A DNA stretch of 64,000 nucleotides, from assembly GCA_012959275.1 (NCBI GenBank), contig DUDM01000034.1:16688-80687 (forward strand), written 5' to 3'. The DNA comes from Candidatus Poseidoniales archaeon. GTDB lineage: Archaea; Thermoplasmatota; Poseidoniia; Poseidoniales; Poseidoniaceae. This document shows, piece by piece, positions 17,266-54,825 of this stretch. Numbering within the stretch: the stretch's first letter is position 1; each line of letters opens with the position of its first letter. The notes beneath the pieces were generated by a model. The model searched no databases, had not been told where the DNA came from, and worked only from the letters and a program-made list of their open reading frames with translations. The translations under genes were made by a program, and so were the position numbers.

Positions 17266-18219
17266 ATGGGTAGCGGTCTGAAACTTTTGCTTGCCTTTTC
17301 TACATTGGGAACGTTTGGATTCTACATGGCAAGAGTTAGTGTGATGACAGAGGCTGCTCAATGGGGATTTATTGGGGCCCTACTTGGGCAGGCATTTGTA
17401 TTCATTATTTTACCAGGAAAACAAAAGAAAACTGTTGTTAGAAGAACTGCAGCAGCAGCCAATGTAGCGGAAGAAGAAGCATTGGCTGAAGAAGATAAGA
17501 TTGACATTCCAGATCCAGTAACTATGGACCCGCTCGATGGTGCCACCTTGAAGCAGCGGAAGATGGCAAAAATTAAGGCAATTCAAAGTGCTGCTGAAGA
17601 GGAAGAGGATGAAGAAGTTCAAGAAATTTCTGTTGATGAAATCGAGGAAATTGATGACCTTCATATCGCTGAAGAATACGTTGTTGAAATCGATGCAGAA
17701 TCAATTGAAGAGGCTAAAATTGAGGATGCAGTTTCAGAGCGCCGCCGCCACCATGCAGAAATTCGCAAGCGTATCGAAATGCGCCGTCGTGAACAGATGG
17801 CAGAAGTGCGTGCTTCAGCAGCAAAAATGTGGGATAATAAATCTGGTGAAGATTTGGCAGCCATCGTTAGTAATGAAGGCCATGGATTGACAATTCTTGA
17901 TGAGCCCGATGAAGTTGAATCAGGCCATCCGTATGGGGCGACATTCATCCGTTTAGATGATACAAGAGTACTCAAGGTTAGGGTTGCACTTGATGATGGA
18001 TTCAAGACTGCAGAATTAGAAGAGGAAGAAAATGAACTCCCACCTCTCCTCCTACCGGATGGTACTACATTGCCATTACCCAGTGGATTACCATTACCGC
18101 CTCTTCCCGTGATAGGTGGATTACCATTACCCCCTCCTCCCATGGTAGGTGGATTGCCTCCACCTCCGGCACTAAACAGTCAGAACAAATTAGCCGCTCT
18201 GAGAGATGAAATTGCTTAA
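17266..18219 (+). CDS. hypothetical membrane-anchored protein with acidic coiled region and proline-rich tail
   Basis: Two N-terminal TM segments, an E/D/K-rich middle and a C-terminal GLPLPPLPVIGGLPLPPPPMVGGLPPPP. Antisense ORFs here are low-complexity shadows. Confidence 0.6.
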   Translation: MGSGLKLLLAFSTLGTFGFYMARVSVMTEAAQWGFIGALLGQAFVFIILPGKQKKTVVRRTAAAANVAEEEALAEEDKIDIPDPVTMDPLDGATLKQRKMAKIKAIQSAAEEEEDEEVQEISVDEIEEIDDLHIAEEYVVEIDAESIEEAKIEDAVSERRRHHAEIRKRIEMRRREQMAEVRASAAKMWDNKSGEDLAAIVSNEGHGLTILDEPDEVESGHPYGATFIRLDDTRVLKVRVALDDGFKTAELEEEENELPPLLLPDGTTLPLPSGLPLPPLPVIGGLPLPPPPMVGGLPPPPALNSQNKLAALRDEIA

Positions 18220-30698: not shown

Positions 30699-31010
30699 CT
30701 ACGAGTATTCCATTTTACCGATTATAGAATCAAATGATACAGTCCCAAAATTATGGCTATCATCTGAAGCCAATGGGTCGGGATTATCACCTTCTAGGAA
30801 AAAGCGACCCCCATCTATGGACTTTATTCTCTTGACGATTTTCACATTTTTTTTAAGGGGATGGAAGACAAGAACTACATCACCCTCTTTCAAACTTTCA
30901 TCAACACTGAATTTGATGATATCTCCTGGCTTGAGAGTGGGAAGCATACTGTCGCCGTGAATGACGACTTTAACCATGCATACCAACTCACGAGGCGCGG
31001 ACCCAAGCAT
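30699..31010 (-). CDS. sodX: S26/S24-type signal peptidase-like protease, probable Ni-SOD maturation protease SodX
   Basis: HGDSMLPTLKPGD (catalytic Ser) and VKRIKS (catalytic Lys context). Lies immediately downstream of sodN. The start is uncertain: 31061, 31010 or 30977. Confidence 0.65.
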   Translation of the reverse strand: MLGSAPRELVCMVKVVIHGDSMLPTLKPGDIIKFSVDESLKEGDVVLVFHPLKKNVKIVKRIKSIDGGRFFLEGDNPDPLASDDSHNFGTVSFDSIIGKMEYS

Positions 31011-31494
31011 CATCTCTGCCCTTGGCTGTCCAGAACATGTGATGAATCGCTTCGATGGCATCCATCAGTTCTTGGGCGTGTACTGCAGAAACTTCTACCT
31101 TGCAGGCGCTGCACAATTTTGCTGCTTTCCAGAAGGTATCGTGTAGATTAGGAATGGATTCCAAGTGTTGTGGCTTGAAGAAATCGGTCCAAAGGACGAG
31201 TAACTCATCTTTGCACTTCTGTGCTTCTTTTTCTTTTATTGTGGCATAGCGGCTCATGGTGTTGATGTAGGCGGCCATTGCACCTGAGTCATCAGGGTAA
31301 GTTAGGTCGAGCATTTTATTGGTCATCGATTGAACTGCTTCGCCAGCAATTCTAGCGCTAGCAGGGTCGTAAACCCCACAGGGTCCATCGCAGTGAGCAA
31401 AGGCGTTGAGTATTTCTTCAGAGGTCATCGACTTGGCGAATGAGCGCCCACATATCAATTTGTGTACATCTAAGGCGTGGGTTTCAATAGGCAA
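30988..31494 (-). CDS. sodN: nickel-containing superoxide dismutase precursor
   Basis: Ni-hook HCDGPCGVYDP preceded by a leader ending NAFA. The start is the ATG at 31494 or 31428 (leader MTSEEILNAFA). Confidence 0.85.
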   Translation of the reverse strand: MPIETHALDVHKLICGRSFAKSMTSEEILNAFAHCDGPCGVYDPASARIAGEAVQSMTNKMLDLTYPDDSGAMAAYINTMSRYATIKEKEAQKCKDELLVLWTDFFKPQHLESIPNLHDTFWKAAKLCSACKVEVSAVHAQELMDAIEAIHHMFWTAKGRDDAWVRAS

Positions 31495-43492: not shown

Positions 43493-44464
43493 ATGTTACC
43501 TTGCTTCGCCCAGCACATGGCAGCAGTCGGTGAACTCGCAGACTATTTCCGGTTGGCTTGTGAAAGAGCCGCAATCGCCAGTGACGAATGGCGGGGCAAA
43601 GGCGACGGTAAGGCCGCTGATGGAGCAGCAGTCGAGGCAATGCGCTCAACATTCGACCAAGTTCCATTTGATGGCAGGGTGGCAATCGGCGAAGGCGAGA
43701 GAGATGAAGCCCCAATGTTGTGGATTGGCGAGCCTCTTGGAAATATGCAAGGCCATCCAGATGCAGTGAAAGTAGACATCGCTGTTGACCCATTGGAGTG
43801 CACAAATAATTGCGCCACAAACAGTCCAAATTCAATCGCCGTACTTGCAGCCGCCCCTCGCGGAGACTTGCTACATGCTCCAGATTGCTACATGGACAAA
43901 ATAGCAGCAGGACCAGACTTAACTGGAGAAATTAGCCTTGATGCTGAAGTGGCATGGAACCTTGAACAGGTTGCTTCGGTTTTGGATAAAGCAGTTTCAG
44001 AGGTTCGGGTTGTAGCACTTGATAGAGAGAGACACGCCCAATTATTTTCAGAAGTTAAGGACGCAGGTGCGCAATTGCATTTGATGGGTGATGGAGATAT
44101 TTCTGCAGCGATTTGGGCCTCTGAAGCCGATGGTCCCTACGATTTGTTACTTGGAATTGGGGCTGCTCCAGAGGGAGTGATTACCGCTACTGCATTACGT
44201 GGTCTTGGTGGTGTATTTGAAGGCAGACTAAAATTTCGTTCTGAAGAAGAGCGTAATAGAGCAGAAGGAATGGTTGGTGGAGACCTTGATCGACTTTGGA
44301 CTGCAGAGGAATTATGTCGTTCATCTGATGCAGTTTTTGTCGCAACTGGTGTTTGCCCAGGCTATCTACCGGGTGTAGAACACCTTGCTGAAGGAATTAA
44401 GACGACTTCGCAAGTCATCGATGTCACTTCCGGAAAAACCAGTAGGATTGAGACGATTCATTGA
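43493..44464 (+). CDS. glpX: fructose-1,6-bisphosphatase class II (GlpX)
   Basis: 323 aa with GEGERDEAPML, IAVDPLECT and LMGDGDISAAI. Confidence 0.85.
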   Translation: MLPCFAQHMAAVGELADYFRLACERAAIASDEWRGKGDGKAADGAAVEAMRSTFDQVPFDGRVAIGEGERDEAPMLWIGEPLGNMQGHPDAVKVDIAVDPLECTNNCATNSPNSIAVLAAAPRGDLLHAPDCYMDKIAAGPDLTGEISLDAEVAWNLEQVASVLDKAVSEVRVVALDRERHAQLFSEVKDAGAQLHLMGDGDISAAIWASEADGPYDLLLGIGAAPEGVITATALRGLGGVFEGRLKFRSEEERNRAEGMVGGDLDRLWTAEELCRSSDAVFVATGVCPGYLPGVEHLAEGIKTTSQVIDVTSGKTSRIETIH

Positions 44465-45054
44465 GTACAAGTTCTAGAATTGTGCCCTGATTTCCCACAG
44501 TTTTTGCAGTGTTTGAATTGATTGTTTCTATTTGGAAAGACTTTTTTGGCATCCGCTGCCTCTGGGTTCACCTTTGGACACGTGCGGGAATTATGCCCAA
44601 TTCTATTGCAAGCCTGACATCGACGCTTACCATCTTTAGGGCGATTCCTTTTGAGGGCCGCTCGTTCTGGAAATAGCCTTGGGCATGTTCGGTTATTATG
44701 TCCGACTTTATTGCATTCGCCGCATACCCTTCTACCATCTGGACGGGGCTTTCGCTTGGCGGGACGGTCTGGATGAAGACGAGGGCAAGAACGTGTATTG
44801 TGACCTTTCCTAAAGCAGTAAGCGCAACGTCTGATTCCATCTTTTTTCTTTTTTTGTTTTCGATTTGGATAAGTTTTTGGGCAAGTTCTTGTGTTGTGAC
44901 CAACGCGGCTACAGTTTCCACATCTCCTGTTACCCCTTGTTTCTAGCCTATATTTACGCTTTTTTGCCTTAGTGGGATTCAATTTAGGGCAGGTTCTTCT
45001 GTTGTGCCCTTTTTCATTACAATTCGAACAAATATAGAAGAAGTTGTCAGCCAT
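44458..45054 (-). CDS. highly basic protein made of six tandem CCHC zinc knuckles
   Basis: ATG at 45054. Six copies of C-x2-C-x3-GHN-x-R-[ST]-C: CSNCNEKGHNRRTC, CGNCSRVGHNTRTC, CAYCFRKGHNTRSC, CGECNKVGHNNRTC, CQACNRIGHNSRTC and CKNCGKSGHNSRTC. They are joined by K/R/P-rich linkers. Confidence 0.8.
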   Translation of the reverse strand: MADNFFYICSNCNEKGHNRRTCPKLNPTKAKKRKYRLETRGNRRCGNCSRVGHNTRTCPKTYPNRKQKKKKDGIRRCAYCFRKGHNTRSCPRLHPDRPAKRKPRPDGRRVCGECNKVGHNNRTCPRLFPERAALKRNRPKDGKRRCQACNRIGHNSRTCPKVNPEAADAKKVFPNRNNQFKHCKNCGKSGHNSRTCTQ

Positions 45055-45147
45055 CTTAATCAATTGGTTGATAAAATCACTCTTATATGTATTATATGGC
45101 AAGTAAATCAGAACCCTGTATTAGGGATTGATTGAAGGAGGAATCCC

Positions 45148-46095
45148 TTGTGGGCGACTTTGCCGGTGATTGAGATGGATGTTGTTGTACCAATGGATGT
45201 GCCTGAAGAAATGGTCGAGTCTTGGCTTGAAAATATGGCTGCTGCAACTTGCAATACAGGTAGGATGAACCTCTTTGCTTGTGACCAGAAAATTGAGCAT
45301 TTGAATGATGATTTTTTTGATGGCGGAGTGAAAATCCCCCCTTCATCGAATAATCCAGAACATTTGTTTGAGATTGGTGCTCGCGCCCATGCCGAAGGAA
45401 CAATTGGTGTTCTTGCTGGCCAATTAGGATTGATTTCTCGTTATGCCATGGATGCAATAGACGTGCCATACCTAGTCAAAATGAATAGTAAAAGCCATCT
45501 TGTGAAAAAGGGGCAAAGAGATCCTGTTAGTATGGCGATGTGGGATATAGATGATGTTTTTACACTCATCAATAATGGCGTAAATGTAGTTGGAATAGGC
45601 TATACAATATATCTTGGTAGTGAGTTTGAACATGATATGCTGACCGAAGCAGCAACTTTGATTCGCCAGGCTCATGAAAATGGCCTAATTACTGTGACAT
45701 GGATTTATCCTAGGGGAGAAGCCGTTGAGGATGAGATGGATCCGCAACTCATCAGTGGGGCGGCAGGAGTTGCACTTTGCATTGGTGCGGATTTTACCAA
45801 AGTCAATTATCCGAGAGCCTTTGACAATATGAGTCAAGCCGAAAGTCTAGCTGTGGCAGTAGAGGCTGCAGGTAGAACAGGAATCATTTGTTCTGGGGGG
45901 GGCAGTCTTCCGGCCAAGGAATTCCTACAACGCCTTTGGGAGCAAATTAACATCTCAGGTGCTCAAGGTGCTGCTACAGGCCGTAATATTCACCAAAAAG
46001 GCACTGAGGAAGCGGTTAAGATGACTGCTGCATGTCACGCGATTATCTGTGAAGAAGCCAGTGTGGATGAAGCATTGGCTATTTTCGAAGAGTGA
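45148..46095 (+). CDS. class I aldolase of the DhnA/FbaB/LacD family (fructose-bisphosphate aldolase or ADH synthase)
   Basis: GGAGG 6 nt before TTG at 45148 (an alternative ATG lies at 45175). Schiff-base lysine context GADFTKVNYP and a GRNIHQ tail. Confidence 0.75.
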   Translation: MWATLPVIEMDVVVPMDVPEEMVESWLENMAAATCNTGRMNLFACDQKIEHLNDDFFDGGVKIPPSSNNPEHLFEIGARAHAEGTIGVLAGQLGLISRYAMDAIDVPYLVKMNSKSHLVKKGQRDPVSMAMWDIDDVFTLINNGVNVVGIGYTIYLGSEFEHDMLTEAATLIRQAHENGLITVTWIYPRGEAVEDEMDPQLISGAAGVALCIGADFTKVNYPRAFDNMSQAESLAVAVEAAGRTGIICSGGGSLPAKEFLQRLWEQINISGAQGAATGRNIHQKGTEEAVKMTAACHAIICEEASVDEALAIFEE

Positions 46096-46105
46096 ATATT
46101 TTTAT

Positions 46106-46420
46106 TCACCTGAATATCGAGTTTCCATTTTTATCATTGTTGAGTAGAATTGGCTTGCCATCTTCCCACTCGGGGCAGTTGTCGGAAACCCAAATGCGTG
46201 TTGCCCACTCACAAATATCGTAGCCACCAGAGAGGATTCCACTTCGCTTGATATAGCCAACCTTGACGATGTCTTTGTCTTTGGAAAGTACGTTTCCTAA
46301 TTGTTGACTTGTTGTGCCGTGGCGCATTGTGGTATTGATATGCTCAAGTATTTCGGCTGTGTTCCTAGGGCGCTCTGCCAGGAACTTCTTAATTTTCTCG
46401 CGTATTCTTACTGTTTTCAT
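46106..46420 (-). CDS. small winged-helix DNA-binding protein (family not recognised)
   Basis: ATG at 46420 preceded by AAGGAGG (an alternative ATG lies at 46459). KIKKFLAERPRNTAEILEHINTTMRHGTTSQQLGNVLSKDKDIVKVGY looks like HTH plus wing. Confidence 0.6.
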   Translation of the reverse strand: MKTVRIREKIKKFLAERPRNTAEILEHINTTMRHGTTSQQLGNVLSKDKDIVKVGYIKRSGILSGGYDICEWATRIWVSDNCPEWEDGKPILLNNDKNGNSIFR

Positions 46421-46599
46421 TGAATCATCCTCCTTTTGTTTTTTGGGCGGCCGCTTCATGGTTCGGTGCCCGATATGGCAGAGGAACGCTGGGGCTCATA
46501 TAACCGTTATGCCTACAATTGATTGTAGGGTTACACTTACTGACCATTATAGGTGCAATATTGTGCCAACCGAGGCACGTGGTGTGAAAAATAGTCTAA

Positions 46600-46612
46600 C
46601 TCCAGTGGAAAC
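46600..46612 (+). promoter_or_regulatory. ORB / mini-ORB core motif CTCCAGTGGAAAC
   Basis: Exact match to the core of the archaeal origin recognition box. Lies in the divergent intergenic region 40-95 nt upstream of the 866-aa gene. Confidence 0.5.
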
Positions 46613-46651
46613 CCGTAACTAAATGTAAGTTTAAAGCATGTTAAGGTCAAG

Positions 46652-49252
46652 TTGATAACCCCCCCTGCCTGTAGAATTAATTGGAGGATACCGGAGGTGC
46701 CAGCAAAGATCCGCAGTAATTACCGGCGAAGGCTGCTTACAACCCTCAGCATTTCTGGTTGCTCTGTTAGTGAGGCTGCTCAAAAAACAGGGCTTCGTTT
46801 ACCACACGCATCTGCAGAATTAAAGAAACTAAGAGGCGAGGGCCATGTTTCTGCGGATAGAGAGGGTGAGAGTAGAGGTTCGCACCAGAGATTAACCTCA
46901 TCAGGAATGAAATTACTTGAGTCAGATGAATTGGCTCGCTTGAAACAAGTTCTGAAGACTGGAGTGCCATCAGAAGCACAAGGATGCATTGTTGCTAGAG
47001 ATGGCGAATCACTACTGTTGGCTTACGCGGTTAATCCCGGAAAAGGCATTTTGTTGATACCAAATCAAGGGATGGAGATAATTAGTGATTCCAGTGGAAA
47101 CCAAGGGGATGAATTAGAATTCAGTTGGGTTACTCCTGTCGAGCGAAGAATACGCTGGTTTGATTCCAAAACTTTAGAGCCTACCCAAGCACCTGAATCC
47201 GGGCAATCAATGCAGACATTGGCTGCTTGGACTGAAGCAAACCAAGTTGTAGGATTAATCCGAGGGCGAACTTTGGATTATTCAAAAAGTGAGAATTTGG
47301 CTGTTGGAACTTGGTTTAAAAAACCGAAAATGAAGAACCCCCCTCCATTGCCAAATCTACTTCGTGATGGGGATTGGAATTTGGGTGAAGCACACGAATC
47401 TGCAAAGCCAGTGAAACCAGAAGTTCCACTTGTTGCGGTAGTACAGGAACGTTATGCTGCTTCTTTACTGACAAATGCAGCAAGTGAAGGGGCATGGGTA
47501 TTATCTGACCGAGCCGAATCCAACCCCATTCCAATTTCAGTTCTACAATGGTGGATTAGAGAAGTACATCCAAGACTACCTGCTGCTGAATTAAGAGATA
47601 GGCTTTCACAGGTACAAAAAGCAGCAGTTACTGGATGGAGAGGTCGAAGGAGGCGTTCAAGGCTGACAACAACATGGCAGAGATTCAGGGAATCTTGGCA
47701 AGATGTAGAGTGGCAAGAAGAACCGATTTATGAGAATCCTGCATCATTTAATATTCAGAGTTTGGATTCTTTAGCAGTGAAATCATTAATGCATTGGATT
47801 ATTGAGGATGCGAAGCAACCTTTGGTATTGAATTGGCCAACCCATCGAGATTTTGATGAAAATAAATTTGGTTCTTTACTAAATAATGGTTTGAACAGGT
47901 TGCTAATCACCCCCCATGAAATTAATTCTCCTAGTTTAGTTTTGGCCGAGGGCCCTGAAGGTTGGCCCGATTCGAGATTGAGATTACCAACAAACATTGA
48001 GATTCCTATATTGCTTGCAGAACAGAAAGAAGAGTTGATTGCACCACCTGATAATTGGACACGACCTTGGAAACCATCTGACATAATTCCCCTATCGGAA
48101 TCTTTTGACTTGGTCAAAACACCGGATGATGAATTGGAAGCATTATGGGTTGCTTGCTCTCTTTTCCCCGAGGGTGAGGAAAATTGGGCGAATAGACATG
48201 AAAGCAAATTTCCATTAGCAGCATGGATTGCTAGTAGCCAAGAGCACAGGTGGTCAAGATGGCAAAGAATTTCAAGATGGCTAAATTCTGAATGGATAGA
48301 GTTGCTACCCCCTGAAGAAGTGCCATTTTCTGAGCTGGTGAAATTATTGGCCCGAGCCACACCAGAATGGAGGATTCACGCCAGTCAAGTGATACGGAAA
48401 ACAATGATTCTGCAACCTGATGCAGTTATTGAGATGAGGAGATGGTGCAAAGAAAAATCAGATGCAGCAGTTTGTGCAGAACAAATCCTAGCAGTTGCGC
48501 CGTGGATTATCCCTCATTTAGGAAAAGCCATGGCTGTTTGGGCATACCAAGCATGGCAAGCATACCCAACTCAAGATATTGGGCCAGTATTAGAAGGTAT
48601 GAAATGGTGTGCTTGTCAAGGATTTCTCAAGAAATCATGGTCAAAGCCAATTGAAGAAGTTGCCATCAATTTGCGTTCAGGTCACCCATTGAGGCACTGG
48701 CTTTCAATCCTGAAGTGGACAACAGATGGAAAGACAATGAGGCTTGACTCAATGCGAAATTCATTCGAAGCATTACCTCTTGATTGGTGGGCTCATCTCT
48801 CTATCGAAGCATTGTCGCGACAACTCGAAGATGAAGATGGAAGAAGCTGGTTATTGGAACAACCAATTTCATGGGCTGCTGCTTGCCTAAGGCCACCAAC
48901 AGAGGAAGGAAGGTTACCAGGTGCGGATAGTCAACATCCAGGGATGGATATGAATTTAGTAGTTTCAATACGACATCACTTTGTGAATCTTGAAAATGAA
49001 AAAGGAGAAGGCAGTTCACATCTCTTAGATTTGATAGAAAGTATAGAAGACTTGGAACAAGGAAGCGCAGTAAAATGCGGTAGAACCCATCCAGCAGTTT
49101 CATGGTTGGTTAGACCAGTCGATGAGTGGGGGATATTAGACTTGACACCTGAAGGCTTTTCTTGCGATGAAATGGTCCAGGCAAGATTGGATATACGCGT
49201 CAGTGGTTTCCATTCTGGGCTATTAGAGTCCACACAAGCAAGGCTGCCTTGA
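46652..49252 (+). CDS. 866-aa orphan protein with N-terminal winged-helix (ArsR/MarR-like) domain
   Basis: Uninterrupted ORF with a non-ATG start (TTG 46652, or GTG 46697 lying 9 nt after GGAGG). N-terminal RRRLLTTLSISGCSVSEAAQKTGLRLPHASAELKKLRGEGHVSADREGESRGSHQRLT. The remainder is Trp/Arg-rich with no motif I recognise and no P-loop. Confidence 0.7.
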   Translation: MITPPACRINWRIPEVPAKIRSNYRRRLLTTLSISGCSVSEAAQKTGLRLPHASAELKKLRGEGHVSADREGESRGSHQRLTSSGMKLLESDELARLKQVLKTGVPSEAQGCIVARDGESLLLAYAVNPGKGILLIPNQGMEIISDSSGNQGDELEFSWVTPVERRIRWFDSKTLEPTQAPESGQSMQTLAAWTEANQVVGLIRGRTLDYSKSENLAVGTWFKKPKMKNPPPLPNLLRDGDWNLGEAHESAKPVKPEVPLVAVVQERYAASLLTNAASEGAWVLSDRAESNPIPISVLQWWIREVHPRLPAAELRDRLSQVQKAAVTGWRGRRRRSRLTTTWQRFRESWQDVEWQEEPIYENPASFNIQSLDSLAVKSLMHWIIEDAKQPLVLNWPTHRDFDENKFGSLLNNGLNRLLITPHEINSPSLVLAEGPEGWPDSRLRLPTNIEIPILLAEQKEELIAPPDNWTRPWKPSDIIPLSESFDLVKTPDDELEALWVACSLFPEGEENWANRHESKFPLAAWIASSQEHRWSRWQRISRWLNSEWIELLPPEEVPFSELVKLLARATPEWRIHASQVIRKTMILQPDAVIEMRRWCKEKSDAAVCAEQILAVAPWIIPHLGKAMAVWAYQAWQAYPTQDIGPVLEGMKWCACQGFLKKSWSKPIEEVAINLRSGHPLRHWLSILKWTTDGKTMRLDSMRNSFEALPLDWWAHLSIEALSRQLEDEDGRSWLLEQPISWAAACLRPPTEEGRLPGADSQHPGMDMNLVVSIRHHFVNLENEKGEGSSHLLDLIESIEDLEQGSAVKCGRTHPAVSWLVRPVDEWGILDLTPEGFSCDEMVQARLDIRVSGFHSGLLESTQARLP
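47089..47108 (+). promoter_or_regulatory. full ORB-like element TTCCAGTGGAAAC-CAA-GGGG, inside the coding sequence
   Basis: Second exact copy of TCCAGTGGAAAC in the same orientation, followed by a G-string as in full ORBs. It encodes SSGNQG of the 866-aa protein. Confidence 0.4.
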
Positions 49253-49290: not shown

Positions 49291-49578
49291 TTGCCACACC
49301 AGCAACACCGACTGGAGCAACTACCCCGCCGGGTAGACGTGATGAGAGTACGGTACCAATGAGTGTGGCATTTAGCCGTCAACGAAGACCAGGGGGATCC
49401 TTCGGGAGATGATGTCTGGTGCAAACTGGCGGCGTGATTATCGACTGAGTTTGGGTCCTTGCCCGACGAGAGGATGAATGTGAGACAACCCCTCGGTCGT
49501 ACAGATGCCCTGGTGTGAGGGTCATGCCCCTGAGGAGACTGTGAGGAGGGCTGTTACACACCGGGGCTCACTCTATCT
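49291..49578 (+). ncRNA. candidate structured noncoding RNA of about 290 nt with kink-turn motif(s); identity unresolved
   Basis: A 366-nt gap with no credible CDS. My hand count gives about 57 percent G+C over 49321-49560. Hairpin CUACCC-CGCC-GGGUAG at 49321-49336. K-turn hairpin at 49388-49420. Helix 49375-49380/49428-49433. Hairpin 49464-49499 followed by ACA. 10-bp helix 49508-49517/49557-49566. Boundaries are approximate. Confidence 0.5.
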
Positions 49579-49618
49579 TACACAAGGAATATCTCCTTCC
49601 CTCCCTGCCACTTCTTTG

Positions 49619-50626
49619 ATGGCAAGACAATTCAGCCGTTGTCTGGTAGGTGGAACCTTTGACAGATTCCATGCTGGCCATATTTATCTGCTCGATTTAG
49701 CACTTTCAAAATCTCAGCATGTTGAAGTTTGGATAACCGATGACAAGATGGTTTCAGATAAGGTAGGTATTCCATTAGAACTAGACAGGCGCATGGATGA
49801 ACTTTCCGAATGGGCTGAATTGAAACATGGAGATCGAATCAGCCTTCATATTCTTAGAGATAAATTTGGACCAGCACCACATCGAAAGGATTGTGATGCG
49901 ATTGCTTGCACTATTGAGACCAAGAGAAATTGTTTATCGATAAATGAGCAACGTTATGCAGCAGGATTGGAAGCCTTGGAAATCATTGTTGCTCCCCATA
50001 TTGAAGATGGTGCAGGAGGAATAATCAGCAGTACAAGAATAAGGGCTGGAATTATTGATAGAGATGGGAATCCATGGCTGGTCGATAATGACCAAGACCG
50101 AAAGATGCCGAAAGTACTGGATGATTCACTTAAGCAACCAATGGGCATTCTATATGAAGGTCCAGAAGAATACCCTGAATTAGCAATGCGGAAAGCATTG
50201 GAAGAAATCCCAAATTCTTCGAGCATCATAGCAGTTGGAGATGTATGCGTTCAAACTATGTTAGAGATAGGAGTTCGCCCATGGATTGGATTTATCGATG
50301 GCCGAACTAAAAGACAACTTCTCGATGAATCAGAAACAGTTTCAACAGAAGGTTGGGAAGCAATCATTCATTGTACAAACCCACCTGGTATTATCTCATC
50401 AGATTTGATAAAAACTTGTCGTAAATCTGTAAATTCAGATGGCACAGTGTTGGTGGTGGTGGATGGAGAAGAGGACCTCGTTCCCATCCCAATTCATATG
50501 ATGTTACCATTAGATTGCTACCTCATATATGGTCAACCAAACAAAGGTGTGGTGGTGCGAATTAGTGATGAAACTGTGAAGCAACGTTGCAGAGAAATGT
50601 TTGCTGCTTTTGAGGTGATTCCTTGA
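49619..50626 (+). CDS. bifunctional phosphopantetheine adenylyltransferase (archaeal PPAT) / GTP-dependent dephospho-CoA kinase (DUF359) fusion
   Basis: ATG at 49619 gives MARQFSRCLVGGTFDRFHAGH (the nucleotidyltransferase HxGH motif). The C-terminal half has VGDVCVQ, DGRTKRQ, NPPGII, VDGEEDLVPIP and YGQPNKGVV, matching the DUF359 DPCK pattern. Confidence 0.85.
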   Translation: MARQFSRCLVGGTFDRFHAGHIYLLDLALSKSQHVEVWITDDKMVSDKVGIPLELDRRMDELSEWAELKHGDRISLHILRDKFGPAPHRKDCDAIACTIETKRNCLSINEQRYAAGLEALEIIVAPHIEDGAGGIISSTRIRAGIIDRDGNPWLVDNDQDRKMPKVLDDSLKQPMGILYEGPEEYPELAMRKALEEIPNSSSIIAVGDVCVQTMLEIGVRPWIGFIDGRTKRQLLDESETVSTEGWEAIIHCTNPPGIISSDLIKTCRKSVNSDGTVLVVVDGEEDLVPIPIHMMLPLDCYLIYGQPNKGVVVRISDETVKQRCREMFAAFEVIP

Positions 50627-51687: not shown

Positions 51688-52311
51688 TTAGTCCATCGGC
51701 GCAACTTCGCCATCTTCTGCAGGCATAATGAATAAGGCAATACCGAACCCAATTAATGCTGCAGCGACAGAATAGACACCAGGATCAATCCATCCAGTGT
51801 GGGCGATTCCCCAATAAAAGTAGAAAATGATTCCAATTGCTAGAAGCCATGAGGAGAATGTTTTCCTCCAACCACCCTCTTCGGCATTCATCATTGCTAG
51901 CCAATAGTCGTTGACAAAGAGGTTTTTCAGCCATGCAGCCATGCCACCTTCAAAATGGGTATTGATGCCTTTTGCTCCTAGTCCAATGAGCACTAGCCCC
52001 ATAGTTAGGAATGCACTATCACCTAAGATGTGGAATCCTTGACCACTTGTTTCAGTAAACAAAATTTCCCCAAATGCACCAAGGCTCAAGAAACCGACCC
52101 AGGAGACTTTGCCACTTGGATGTGCCATCACAAGTACGTTGAGTATTCCCAATAGTAAGATCCAAGCCCCTAACGCGAAAAACCAAACCGAAATGCTGCG
52201 ACCCGGATTGAGGATGGAATTGATGAAGCCGCCTTCAGCCTCGCCCTTCTCAGTCTCTGACATGGCCACGCCGACCATCGGTTCTCGTTTAAGTGGCTCG
52301 GCTTGCTTCAC
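51688..52311 (-). CDS. hypothetical integral membrane protein, overlapping the orc1/cdc6 stop by 4 nt
   Basis: 207 aa with about six hydrophobic spans. Family not recognised. Confidence 0.6.
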   Translation of the reverse strand: MKQAEPLKREPMVGVAMSETEKGEAEGGFINSILNPGRSISVWFFALGAWILLLGILNVLVMAHPSGKVSWVGFLSLGAFGEILFTETSGQGFHILGDSAFLTMGLVLIGLGAKGINTHFEGGMAAWLKNLFVNDYWLAMMNAEEGGWRKTFSSWLLAIGIIFYFYWGIAHTGWIDPGVYSVAAALIGFGIALFIMPAEDGEVAPMD

Positions 52312-53558
52312 AGGCGAGTTTGGAACCTGTACGAACCTGAATCAACCGCACTAAGTGCTTCATCTGATGCAATCATTAATGAGGTAGCATCGATGGAAAT
52401 TGGCATACATGAGTTGATTTGTTTACTTCTTCCATAACGCCCTCGGCTAACGGTTTTCGAATTAATTAACCCTAACATATCAAGATTGGAGAGTAGGTCA
52501 GTTATTCTTCTTTGAGTGAGGTTATTCGTGCCATAATGTTGGCAGGCCTGTCTGTAGATTTCATAGACTTCACCAGTTGCAATATTTGAGAGACCATTCT
52601 TTTCATTGAGAAGCACAGAGTAGAGGACTAGTTTTTGTTGTGGAGGGAGAGTTTTGATTATCGGAGTTATCTGATCGCATTCAATTTGGTTTTGAGCCAT
52701 CCTTACATGTTGTACTTCTACTGTTTCACAACCGGATTGCTCAGCCTTTTCAGTAGATACTCTAAGCAAATCCAATGCTCTTCGAGCATCACCGTGTTCT
52801 TGGGCTGCAAGAGCAGAGCATAGTTGCAAAACACCTTCACTGAGAGAATTAGTTTTGATACCAATCTCAGCACGGTCTTCGAGAATATCTTTCAGTTGTA
52901 CAGCATCATATGGTGAAAAAATGACATCTTCTTGACCTAAACGACTTTTAACGCGGGGGTCGAGGTATTCGGTAAACTTCAAATCATTACTTATGCCAAT
53001 TACACAGCATCTGGCTTGGCCCCTTCTCTTCAAATCATCATTGATATTACATAGGTTGTAGAGTAGGTCATCTCCAACCTTCTTCACTAAATGATCTATT
53101 TCATCAAGAACGATAACATGTACGCCACCGCGTTCATTCATCCTCTTAACTAATTCTTCAAACACCCTGTCTGTTGGCCAACCGGTGAATGGAATATCTT
53201 CTTTTTCATTATCTTCTAATAATGAGTTTCCAAGGAAAGCAAGGACGCGATATTGGGTGTCTATCGTACGACAATTGACATGTACTGGGTTAACCGACTT
53301 GCCGATTTGTTTACCCTTGCCCTCAAGTTGTGAGCAGATGAACCTTGTAACCGCAGTTTTTCCAGCACCAGTTACGCCGTAAAGAACCATGTTGGAAGGA
53401 ATTTGACCTTTCAGAGCCTCAACCAAATTGAACCGAATGGCTTTAATTTCTTTCTTTCTATGCGGGAGTTCACTTGGATGGTGAGAATGCCTCAAGACTT
53501 CTTTATTGACAAAGAGACTAGGATGGGACAGAAGATTATCGAAAATATTTTCTCCCAT
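52308..53558 (-). CDS. orc1: Orc1/Cdc6 replication initiator
   Basis: ATG at 53558 (MGENIFDNLL). Walker A LYGVTGAGKTA, Walker B VIVLDEIDHL, a sensor region and a C-terminal winged helix (RRITDLLSNLDMLGLINSKTVSRGRYGRSKQI). Confidence 0.92.
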   Translation of the reverse strand: MGENIFDNLLSHPSLFVNKEVLRHSHHPSELPHRKKEIKAIRFNLVEALKGQIPSNMVLYGVTGAGKTAVTRFICSQLEGKGKQIGKSVNPVHVNCRTIDTQYRVLAFLGNSLLEDNEKEDIPFTGWPTDRVFEELVKRMNERGGVHVIVLDEIDHLVKKVGDDLLYNLCNINDDLKRRGQARCCVIGISNDLKFTEYLDPRVKSRLGQEDVIFSPYDAVQLKDILEDRAEIGIKTNSLSEGVLQLCSALAAQEHGDARRALDLLRVSTEKAEQSGCETVEVQHVRMAQNQIECDQITPIIKTLPPQQKLVLYSVLLNEKNGLSNIATGEVYEIYRQACQHYGTNNLTQRRITDLLSNLDMLGLINSKTVSRGRYGRSKQINSCMPISIDATSLMIASDEALSAVDSGSYRFQTRL

Positions 53559-53582
53559 TTTGTAACATCTCCTTGATTTCAA

Positions 53583-54027
53583 TTGAGAATCATATTTCCT
53601 CAGCCAACTTCAGCCACCTGATGAGGCATCCTAGTCCGAGGGGGGTATATAGGAACTATGGCATCAGCCTCATCGTGAATGGGATTTACTCTGCAGATGT
53701 TTAATATATTGAATCATTGAAATCAGCGCTTGGCATCAACAAGTAACTAATTATTACCTACTAGTCGTGCGTTTTTTACACTTACTCTTAAATTGAGAGG
53801 AGAAAACCCCCTCATAGTATCCACTACAAAACATAATGAGTTTACAAGGATTAATTGATTATGCATGAATCATTTATTAAAATTCAATTATGTTCTAAGA
53901 TTATAATGAAGGAATCAGAAAGGGAACATTTTTTGGAGTATATGAAGACTTTCTACTCGCTCCAATTGGCAAGATACATAAAGGTGCCATTAAATATCAT
54001 ATTTATTGATAATTAAACCACTATTAT
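53583..54027. other. candidate replication origin (AT-rich intergenic region upstream of orc1/cdc6)
   Basis: A 445-bp noncoding, very A+T-rich stretch. G-run 53640-53645 and an opposed C-run with a degenerate ORB-like element (reverse complement GTAGTGGATAC-TATGA-GGGGG, 53807-53829) bracket about 160 bp of AT-rich DNA. An 8-bp inverted repeat GATGAGGC/GCCTCATC lies at 53620-53627 and 53667-53674. Confidence 0.55.
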
Positions 54028-54825
54028 TTACACTTTATTGAGGCCCGATGAATCCAAAAGGAATTTATCTCCATCTGATATTTGAATTACATTAGGTGGT
54101 AATTTAGGCAATACATTCGAGATTATTGCCGTCAGTGGACTTGAAGGGTCGTCAAGGAAGGTGTGAGTAACTAGAAAAATCGTGTTGGGATTACTTTGAG
54201 AAATATCCAAAATACTCTTTGGGCTATAGTGTTGAGATGTTGGAACATGGTCTGGAACCCCCATCTCAATGACCACAACATCACACCTTCCAACTCTACT
54301 TTCAATCGCCTCGCAGGGTCCTGAATCCCCTGTGTGCATCAGCGATAGTCCAGATGAATGAGTTAATACATAGCCATGAGGATCAACTTCAGTATCATGC
54401 TCGACAGCAAAGCGCTCAAATTTCCATTTGGGATTATTCAGAATATTGCCATTGGAACCTTCATCCCAGTCAAATTCCTTTAGTCGTTCTTCCATACTAC
54501 TTGGATATGCGGTTTCACAAAGTGCAGATAGGCGCGCCTTGCACCCTTTTGGGCCATGTATTCCTAGTGGTTCTGCTCCACTCCTATCTGAAATCCACTT
54601 TCTTTCTAGAATTACAAAAGGGAAACCAAAGACATGGTCACCATGCCAATGGGTGAACATAATACTGTTTAATTTTGAAGGCGATAATTCGATACGGCGT
54701 AAAGAGGCCAAAGCAGTGGGGGGGCAATCGATGAGAATTGAATCATTGATTAGTAGTAAGGAGTGAAATCTTCCTTGTGGAAGGAAGGCATTGCCACTTC
54801 CAAGGAATTCCAACTTCACCGCCAT
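54028..54825 (-). CDS. metallo-beta-lactamase-fold hydrolase
   Basis: THWHGDH motif, with downstream His/Asp ligand positions (HTGDSG). Confidence 0.8.
   Translation of the reverse strand: MAVKLEFLGSGNAFLPQGRFHSLLLINDSILIDCPPTALASLRRIELSPSKLNSIMFTHWHGDHVFGFPFVILERKWISDRSGAEPLGIHGPKGCKARLSALCETAYPSSMEERLKEFDWDEGSNGNILNNPKWKFERFAVEHDTEVDPHGYVLTHSSGLSLMHTGDSGPCEAIESRVGRCDVVVIEMGVPDHVPTSQHYSPKSILDISQSNPNTIFLVTHTFLDDPSSPLTAIISNVLPKLPPNVIQISDGDKFLLDSSGLNKV

Follow-up and report, generated by a model that had tools for sequence, protein, structure and literature searches.

Two conserved Orc1-type boxes, one of them inside a gene, as a candidate replication origin locus of the Poseidoniales

Origin recognition boxes (ORBs), the elements bound by Orc1/Cdc6 at archaeal replication origins, have the published consensus CTTCCAGTGGAAACGAAAGGGGT, and those predicted in the Methanomassiliicoccales read GTTCCAGTGGAAATGG-AGGGGTA (PMC4153887). 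In canonical origins, the G-strings of the boxes point away from the duplex unwinding element (DUE) (PMC6742236). The oriC1 of S. islandicus contains two opposed ORBs, each of them required, and Sulfolobus oriC1 does not function without an extra motif, ucm, to which the small protein UBP binds (PMC12141716). No paper on the replication origin of the Poseidoniales was found in the literature that we searched. Here we analyze a 64,000-nucleotide stretch (hereafter the window) of a Candidatus Poseidoniales archaeon (assembly GCA_012959275.1, contig DUDM01000034.1, positions 16,688 to 80,687 of the forward strand), which the names on its homologues and the genome records assign to a Marine Group II archaeon (Poseidoniales). 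The window contains two sequences identical to the ORB core consensus, one in a divergent intergenic region and the other within the coding sequence of an 851-aa protein. Both keep their positions throughout the order, at several kilobases from a gene for an Orc1-1-type initiator, and they are the best current candidate for the replication origin of this group. The four features on which the argument turns are the following:

46600-46612, plus strand: site 1, a predicted mini-ORB with the dyad core CTCCAGTGGAAAC and no G-string, in the divergent intergenic region
47089-47108, plus strand: site 2, a predicted full ORB, TTCCAGTGGAAAC-CAA-GGGG, in frame within the 851-aa gene
46697-49252, plus strand: the 851-aa gene, host of site 2, with a GTG start behind GGAGG and homologues that all begin with MPAKIRS
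52308-53558, minus strand: orc1/cdc6, Orc1-1-type (S. solfataricus Cdc6-1, 2QBY_A, 6.6e-96; A. pernix ORC1, 2V1U, 1e-93)

An earlier, sequence-only reading of the window had pointed to a 12-mer present twice in the same orientation, which we confirm, the exact repeat common to both sites being a 13-mer, TCCAGTGGAAACC, that starts at 46601 and 47090 (start-to-start distance of 489 bp). The dyad core TTCCAGTGGAAA(C/T), from the published consensus (PMC4153887), is found exactly in both sites. The core of site 2 matches the archaeal consensus perfectly and is followed by the G-string of a full ORB, as had been noticed, with a core-to-GGGG spacing of the Methanomassiliicoccales type. No lineage has a G-string at site 1, which places it in the mini-ORB class. 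Site 2 is located about 390 nt into the gene and spans the codons from S132 up to the first base of D138; the host reading frame, first taken to encode 866 aa, is shortened to 851 aa by its homologues, which set the start at the GTG of 46697.

In dinucleotide-preserving shuffles of the window, the expected count of the pre-specified 12-mer was 0.02, and two or more copies occurred in none of 100 shuffles, in line with the earlier argument that two copies are unlikely to arise by chance. With one mismatch allowed, sites 1 and 2 are still the only matches in the window. With three mismatches, 59 matches are found versus 60 expected, showing that degenerate versions are uninformative. A reading in which the boxes are a chance repeat, or in which the in-gene copy is kept because the protein needs a Ser-x-Gly-x-x-Gly stretch, draws some support from the five pairs of unrelated 12-mers found in the window at distances of 600 bp or less. 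Generic close repeats are thus not rare, and the weight of the case comes from the match to the published consensus and from conservation, not from repetition. Against such a reading, the figure of 0.02 concerns one specific 12-mer, and the intergenic copy cannot be explained by coding.

The conservation of the boxes was examined in 12 metagenomic loci and 80 loci from species-representative genomes that carry the 851-aa gene, covering both families of the order, with identities of 26-53% between the 851-aa proteins. The survey of the relatives reached about 10 kb to either side of the locus and covered 1.59 Mb of orthologous neighbourhoods in total. Positions were counted from window position 46793, the first base of the LR[LIVM]PHAS codon block, which is conserved and served as anchor. 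In every locus reaching that far, site 1 occurs at -192 to -255 from the anchor, with 0-3 mismatches to the 12 fixed positions of the core. Its consensus, from 83 unique loci, reads tTyTCCAntgGAAAT-n-TGTAAy-nAAA-TGTAAC and continues into an AT-rich stretch. Site 2 is located at +296 to +308 and is present in 89/93 sources, in the same reading frame every time. Its positions are conserved at T100 C97 C92 A100 nn G97 G100 A100 A100 (percentages), then GGGG at 100% (89/89), with a spacer between GGAA and GGGG of 5 nt in 72 loci and of 4 nt in 17.

Over the 1.59 Mb, the full-ORB pattern gave 105 matches, 93 of them corresponding to site 2, and core-only matches cluster only at sites 1 and 2. Other pile-ups of the core motif, at +4 kb and +5.8 kb, were discarded, as they correspond to the coding sequences of the glycosyltransferase and orc1 genes. 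No other ORB was detected within about 10 kb of the locus in these neighbourhoods, including upstream of orc1. The consensus match, the fixed orthologous positions and the absence of other ORBs near orc1 bear out the earlier assignment of the boxes to ORB-type elements.

The in-gene box has been lost in the MED-G33-related Thalassarchaeaceae (loci L066, L068, L069, and L071), where a remnant, TCCACTAGAAAC..GGAG, is left, and these loci keep a perfect site 1, moved to -255. L066 and L069, but not L068, present a second palindromic element similar to TTCCAATTGG about 25 bp upstream of site 1, which may be a replacement for the lost in-gene box. Separately, one contig (CAXRJJ010000080.1) of a metagenome-assembled genome labelled Yoonia sp., an alphaproteobacterium, is very likely mis-binned, since it carries a Poseidoniales 851-aa locus with both ORB sites.

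The codon usage of site 2 separates selection on the DNA from selection on the protein. Among 85 unique orthologues, 38 amino acid columns are at least 95% conserved and encoded by four- or six-fold degenerate codons; 37 of the 38 have a codon entropy of 1.5-2.5 bits, that is, they vary freely. In contrast, the codon of Gly137 is GGG in 81/81 sequences, whereas the other conserved glycine columns use all four codons. In addition, more than 90% of the sequences use TCC for Ser132 and GGA for Gly134, the codon preceding Ser132 has a pyrimidine as its wobble base without exception, whichever amino acid it encodes (D, T, V, L, F, P, and others), and the first base of the codon after GGG is always G. 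The conservation of the in-gene box at third codon positions, a check that the sequence-only reading had proposed, is indeed observed.

It is true that S132, G134, and G137 are invariant in a 10-sequence protein alignment, as would be expected if the protein required them. However, the four MED-G33 loci read NRPLETTRSYS at the position of the box, having lost the motif and the S-x-G-x-x-G residues together, which shows that the protein does not need these residues. In the AlphaFold model of the 851-aa protein (mean pLDDT, the predicted local distance difference test, of 75), residues 127-139 form a loop between strands with pLDDT below 50. These data argue strongly for purifying selection on site 2 at the DNA level rather than at the protein level, and the amino acids that it encodes appear to be passengers of the DNA motif. 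A protein-level constraint was rejected on the basis of the codon test and of the MED-G33 clade without the box; together with the site frequencies and the shuffles, the codon test refutes, for practical purposes, both a chance repeat and a protein need, an explanation that we regard as highly improbable. An RNA element was rejected as well: the centre of the dyad, of 1-2 nt, makes an RNA hairpin impossible, so that the constraint must act on duplex DNA, and Rfam gave no match at 46000-47300 or 53500-54100, a single tRNA being its only hit in the whole window.

The linked initiator belongs to the type that recognizes such boxes. The two proteins closest to the local Orc1, those of 2QBY_A and 2V1U, are the two Orc1 solved on ORB DNA. 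Its similarity to Cdc6-3 is far weaker (1.6e-42), it passes the NCBIfam ORC1 equivalog NF001625, and in the Orc1 alignment, the region of the initiator-specific motif (ISM; NDLKF..LDPRVKS) is visibly conserved, as is the wing (RGRYG). The local Orc1 is an Orc1-1 orthologue and the presumed binder of the boxes. An Orc1-2 paralogue has also been reported in Marine Group II (PMC3914693); none is present in the window. The distance between the anchor and the orc1 start is 5.7-7.3 kb in 68/68 loci extending that far, so that the initiator linkage of oriC1-type origins is found in every one of them. The boxes are linked to orc1 without adjoining it: three genes lie between, and the boxes are on its 3' side. 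The distance, first given as about 6 kb, is more precisely 5.2 kb to the orc1 3' end and 6.5 kb to its start codon. Because of the identity to the consensus, the conserved asymmetric G-string and the linked cognate initiator, the boxes are quite probably binding sites of Orc1-1, an estimate that adds the probability of an origin to that of an Orc1-dependent regulation.

The surroundings of site 1 contain further conserved elements, in the 276 bp that separate the DUF3860 gene from the 851-aa reading frame:

46106-46420, minus strand: DUF3860 gene, divergent from the 851-aa gene (Pfam PF12976, E = 3e-34; PDB 2OD5, E = 6.5e-56)
46478-46494: GCAGAGGAACGCTGGGG, described in the sequence-only reading as a looser ORB
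46497-46508, minus strand: CATATAACCGTT (read AACGGTTATATG), conserved order-wide, with the highest conservation in the intergenic alignment
46512-46529: palindrome CCTACAA-TTGA-TTGTAGG
46525-46544, no strand assigned: conserved block GTAGGGTTACACTTACTGAC, invariant among the five closest lineages only
46613-46629, plus strand: two TGTAAC-type hexamers abutting site 1, cGTAAC-TAAA-TGTAAG (order consensus TGTAAy-nAAA-TGTAAC)
46630-46665, plus strand: AT-rich stretch with TTTAAAG, AT-rich in all aligned relatives

The looser ORB does not hold as an ORB, its G-run being lost in close relatives; what is conserved there is GGAnCGCTG followed by CATATAACCGTT, which we interpret as the minus-strand promoter region of the DUF3860 gene, CATATAACCGTT/AACGGTTATATG being its putative BRE (transcription factor B recognition element) and TATA box. 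The palindrome is indeed present in the window, but as a palindrome it is not conserved in the relatives. Adjoining it within GTAGGGTTACACTTACTGAC, the hexamer GTTACA (46530-46535) is kept order-wide and is an inverted copy of TGTAAC. TGTAAC is thus found in three copies, two direct beside site 1 and one inverted about 80 bp upstream, all kept order-wide, and a half-site TGAAAA is also conserved in the intergenic region. The two direct hexamers sit where the G-string of site 1 would be and have a high information content across the order; they could be the site of an accessory factor or a BRE. The inverse relation of GTTACA and TGTAAC makes it probable that the region is read by a second factor. 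The stretch at 46630-46665 would be the promoter of the 851-aa gene, with its TATA box, or a DUE, and is the only candidate melting region adjoining site 1.

Both genes flanking this region look as if they encode DNA-binding proteins, which brings in another origin for the dyads. The 851-aa protein has an N-terminal winged helix-turn-helix (wHTH) with weak matches to ArsR/MarR families, followed by a large uncharacterised helical C-terminal domain. Foldseek matches of its model are confined to the N-terminal wHTH and correspond to AspA and MarR; beyond this domain, nothing was identified by Pfam, NCBIfam, a PDB sequence search, or the AlphaFold2 model with Foldseek. All the relatives retrieved for this protein are from the Poseidoniales. 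The DUF3860 protein is small, has a solved structure, and is a conserved neighbour in all the loci examined; its similarity to the winged helix of TFIIF is not significant (E about 0.5).

The dyads could thus be operators or centromere-like sites of a local winged-helix protein, through autoregulation by the 851-aa protein or through DUF3860, their likeness to ORBs being convergent. Indeed, TTCCA-N-TGGAA is a near-perfect palindrome of the type bound by dimeric wHTH proteins, the core of site 1 is palindromic and lies in a wHTH gene promoter, and the N-terminus of the 851-aa protein resembles the pNOB8 centromere-binding AspA as well as ArsR/MarR. The boxes, the 851-aa gene and DUF3860 always co-occur, and the TGTAAC/GTTACA hexamers imply at least one other factor reading the region. 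The details of the sites fit less well: the flanks of site 1 are not symmetric, as those of an operator would be, the TGTAAC repeats being only on its 3' side, and site 2 is intragenic with an asymmetric G-string. A symmetric dimer would not need this G-string, yet GGGG is invariant in 89/89 loci, 4-5 nt after GGAA. The core is moreover identical to a pan-archaeal consensus, and every locus has a linked Orc1-1 orthologue whose DNA-contact segments are conserved. We therefore consider a local winged-helix operator quite unlikely.

Turning back to Orc1, we propose that the boxes mark a non-canonical oriC of the Poseidoniales, to which we give a probability of roughly 0.45 from the sequence comparisons. 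For this speak the boxes being the only canonical Orc1-1 sites in the conserved neighbourhood of orc1, together with the initiator linkage kept order-wide. Both boxes would be recognition elements for the Orc1-1-type initiator encoded at 52308-53558 and would together form a conserved Orc1 docking locus. One Orc1 monomer would bind each box with a defined polarity, its winged helix on the dyad and its AAA+ ISM on the G-string. Since the G-strings of canonical origins are directed away from the DUE (PMC6742236), and likewise those in the opposed pair of a viral comparator described below, the side of site 2 on which MCM would be loaded should face left, towards site 1 and the AT-rich promoter stretch. 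The duplex could then melt at 46613-46665, possibly aided by transcription from the promoter of the 851-aa gene, and the TGTAAC hexamers may bind an accessory factor in analogy to ucm and UBP of the Sulfolobus oriC1.

Several observations weigh against an origin at the boxes, and the first concern their geometry. No inverted ORB partner was found between -700 and +900 of the anchor in 82 loci, and both boxes have the same polarity; the arrangement of oriC1-type origins, with at least two opposed ORBs flanking an unwinding region (PMC12141716; PMC6742236), is not found here. The interval between the boxes is mostly coding, with about 46% GC and without a strong AT-rich unwinding element, and their spacing varies in the relatives from 489 to 547 bp without a conserved helical phase. 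A promoter stretch of about 50 bp beside site 1 is AT-rich throughout the order (median 80-bp AT maximum of 0.75, top 0.24% of windows), but this maximum reaches only 0.65 in the window. For 'Ca. M. intestinalis', from a related order, isolated ORBs outside origins have been described, and a canonical ORB cluster may be present elsewhere in these genomes, beyond the surveyed 10 kb on each side.

The other observations against an origin at the boxes point to a competing DUE or origin candidate:

53559-54027, no strand assigned: orc1 upstream intergenic region, 445 bp, AT-rich, without ORB

For this compact genome, 91% of which is coding, the region is unusually long. The 80-mer with the highest AT content in the window (53828-53907, 81% AT) is located in it, 7 kb from the boxes, and the region also ranks first for AT content in 34/53 loci. 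A weak change of the GC skew is seen near this region as well, and none at the boxes. The orientation-corrected four-fold skew is +0.135 to the left and +0.054 to the right of 46.6 kb, without the change of sign that would mark an inflection at the boxes, and the best change point of the window is at 53805 (+0.14 to -0.03), which is not significant (permutation p = 0.12). A three-segment fit over 40 loci gave +0.017, +0.068, and -0.066, with the drop located at the orc1 upstream region in 38/40.

These skews, computed raw, as orientation-corrected values at four-fold sites, and pooled over 36-40 loci, must be interpreted cautiously. The pooled values are confounded by the presence of the same orthologous genes in every locus, and archaeal skews are reported to be weak and largely driven by translational selection (PMC12999951), so that we give them little weight either way. 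Neither an ORB nor an order-wide motif nor recurrent internal repeats occur in the orc1 upstream region itself, only clade-specific motifs; as the sequence-only reading had stated, nothing upstream of orc1 matches the consensus better than the two boxes. An ORB-like TGTAGTGGATAC-TATGA-GGGGG on the minus strand (about 53801-53830) was discarded because it exists in this genome only and is absent from its relatives. The blocks TCCTAGTCCGAGGGGGGGTAATAAG, TCGTGCGTTTTTTACAC, GAGTATATGAA, and CTCCAATTGG of this region are conserved in close relatives only.

The features of both regions could also be reconciled if Orc1 bound the boxes for transcription or for its own homeostasis, the origin being elsewhere, in the orc1 upstream region or far off. 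At site 1, Orc1 would modulate the divergent promoters, and at site 2, it would act as a roadblock or as the anchor of a loop, with the expression of the 851-aa wHTH protein and of DUF3860 coupled to its occupancy. Site 1 belongs to a densely conserved divergent promoter region, in which the putative TATA box of the 851-aa gene follows about 20 bp downstream. The direct orientation of the boxes with no DUE between them, the AT-rich maximum and weak skew change point at 53.8 kb, and the lone ORBs of 'Ca. M. intestinalis' all go in the same direction. Transcription regulators of the Orc1 family are also known, for instance, Orc1-2 in Saccharolobus (PMC12490963; PMC9738581). On the other hand, an origin in the orc1 upstream region would be without a recognizable Orc1-1 site, an operator 390 nt inside a gene, with a G-string invariant throughout the order, would be unusually placed, and no more ORB copies occur at other promoters in the 1.59 Mb. 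For these reasons, we find a purely regulatory role doubtful, if far from negligible.

A further, more speculative proposal concerns the position of site 2. A full Orc1 box could have been kept as a dual-coding sequence in the gene of a DNA-binding protein since the origin of the Poseidoniales, as an in-gene replicator or an initiator-docking element. In a first version, replication would start in the 851-aa gene, coupled to its transcription, from a direct layout of ORB and mini-ORB unlike that of every dissected archaeal origin. In a second version, the locus would be an archaeal counterpart of datA/DARS, an off-origin Orc1 sink or sensor tying the availability of the initiator to the expression of the 851-aa protein and DUF3860. 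We hold this proposal to be rather unlikely.

The genomic context of the boxes is that of housekeeping genes. The 851-aa gene is followed by a gene for a fused CTP-transferase/DUF359 protein, then by those of a family-2 glycosyltransferase and of a membrane protein, and finally by orc1/cdc6, which is encoded on the minus strand. The order DUF3860, 851-aa gene, DUF359, glycosyltransferase (where present), membrane protein, orc1, metallo-beta-lactamase, and FAD-binding reductase is kept in the relatives, and this order-wide housekeeping synteny led us to reject a mobile-element origin of the locus. The fused gene (49505-50626), encoding a cytidylyltransferase-like domain and DUF359, is separated from the 851-aa gene by a non-coding gap of 250-340 bp and would, as we assume, join a phosphopantetheine adenylyltransferase and an archaeal-type dephospho-CoA kinase.

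Elsewhere in the window, a gene at 44458-45102 (minus strand), located between the genes of a glpX-type fructose-1,6-bisphosphatase and an aldolase, encodes a 214-aa protein with about eight CCHC zinc-knuckle repeats and Lys/Arg-rich linkers. An exact 17-nt direct repeat, GTGGATTACCATTACC(+1), with a period of 33 bp, is found at 18083-18132, within the reading frame at 17266-18219. A nickel superoxide dismutase gene (Sod_Ni, E = 5e-45) is present at 30988-31494 (minus strand), near beta-oxidation-type genes (3-hydroxyacyl-CoA dehydrogenase, enoyl-CoA hydratases) and PaaA/PaaC-like genes.

No member of the Poseidoniales (Marine Group II), which rank among the most abundant archaea in surface seawater, is known in culture. 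A recognizable and conserved Orc1 locus would provide a concrete origin candidate for metagenomic peak-to-trough coverage, the basis of growth-rate estimates in situ. It also raises the question of whether one full ORB and one mini-ORB, in direct orientation and without a classical DUE, can support initiation. Furthermore, the dual coding of site 2 would be a case in which a DNA-binding site dictates the amino acids of a loop, and not the reverse, and origin finders limited to the intergenic DNA beside orc1 would miss such an in-gene box.

Compared with the origins of the oriC1 type in Saccharolobus/Sulfolobus, Aeropyrum, and Pyrococcus, the Poseidoniales locus presents the same dyad core and G-string (CTTCCAGTGGAAACGAAAGGGGT) and a mix of full ORB and mini-ORB. 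It is likewise linked to an Orc1-1 orthologue, which is closest to the proteins crystallised on ORBs, and it has an extra conserved non-ORB motif beside the boxes, the hexamers of site 1, comparable to ucm. Unlike them, the Poseidoniales locus has only two boxes, which are direct and not an opposed pair around an AT-rich DUE; one of the boxes is in coding sequence, and both are 4 to 7 kb from orc1 instead of adjacent to it.

The opposed arrangement is well illustrated by two IMG/VR contigs (L117, 1724-2090; L120, 3215-3581), in which two opposed full ORBs read CCCCCCCCC-ATT-GTTTCCACTGGAA ... GTTTCCAGTGGAAAT-GAA-GGGGGGGG. Their ORB sequence is the same as in the window, but the two boxes enclose a very AT-rich block at a distance of about 330 bp from each other, with the G-strings directed outward, a geometry that our locus does not have; although the contig is classed as viral, the pair has the layout of a textbook Orc1-type origin. 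The scan of viral contigs for ORBs gave 70 mostly single matches, which a rough estimate, for which the size of the collection had to be guessed, puts at no more than chance.

The Methanomassiliicoccales, which also belong to the Thermoplasmatota, offer a closer comparison. Their predicted ORBs have nearly the same sequence, with the same core-to-GGGG spacing and an optional extended G-run, and most of them are likewise located on the downstream side of orc1/cdc6.1; they form inverted pairs 39-256 bp apart, in intergenic regions directly flanking orc1 (PMC4153887). In contrast, the Poseidoniales boxes are direct, about 490-530 bp apart and three genes away from orc1, one of them being intragenic.

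For the regulatory reading, Orc1-2 of Saccharolobus, as reported, is a precedent for an Orc1-family protein acting as a gene regulator and not as an initiator. Orc1-2 recognizes a different short promoter motif. It is a non-initiator paralogue, whereas the boxes described here are of the canonical Orc1-1 type and the linked gene encodes an Orc1-1 orthologue. In bacteria, clusters of DnaA boxes outside oriC or inside genes (datA, DARS, and the boxes of dnaA/dnaN) titrate or regulate the initiator; to our knowledge, no archaeal equivalent of clusters of the datA/DARS type has been described. These clusters resemble the present locus in having initiator sites at conserved non-origin or intragenic positions, in another initiator family and another domain of life. 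Therefore, the kind of element reported here is a known one, and what is new is its setting, with an intragenic and dual-coding box, a direct arrangement, a distance of several kilobases from orc1, and a conservation across the whole order.

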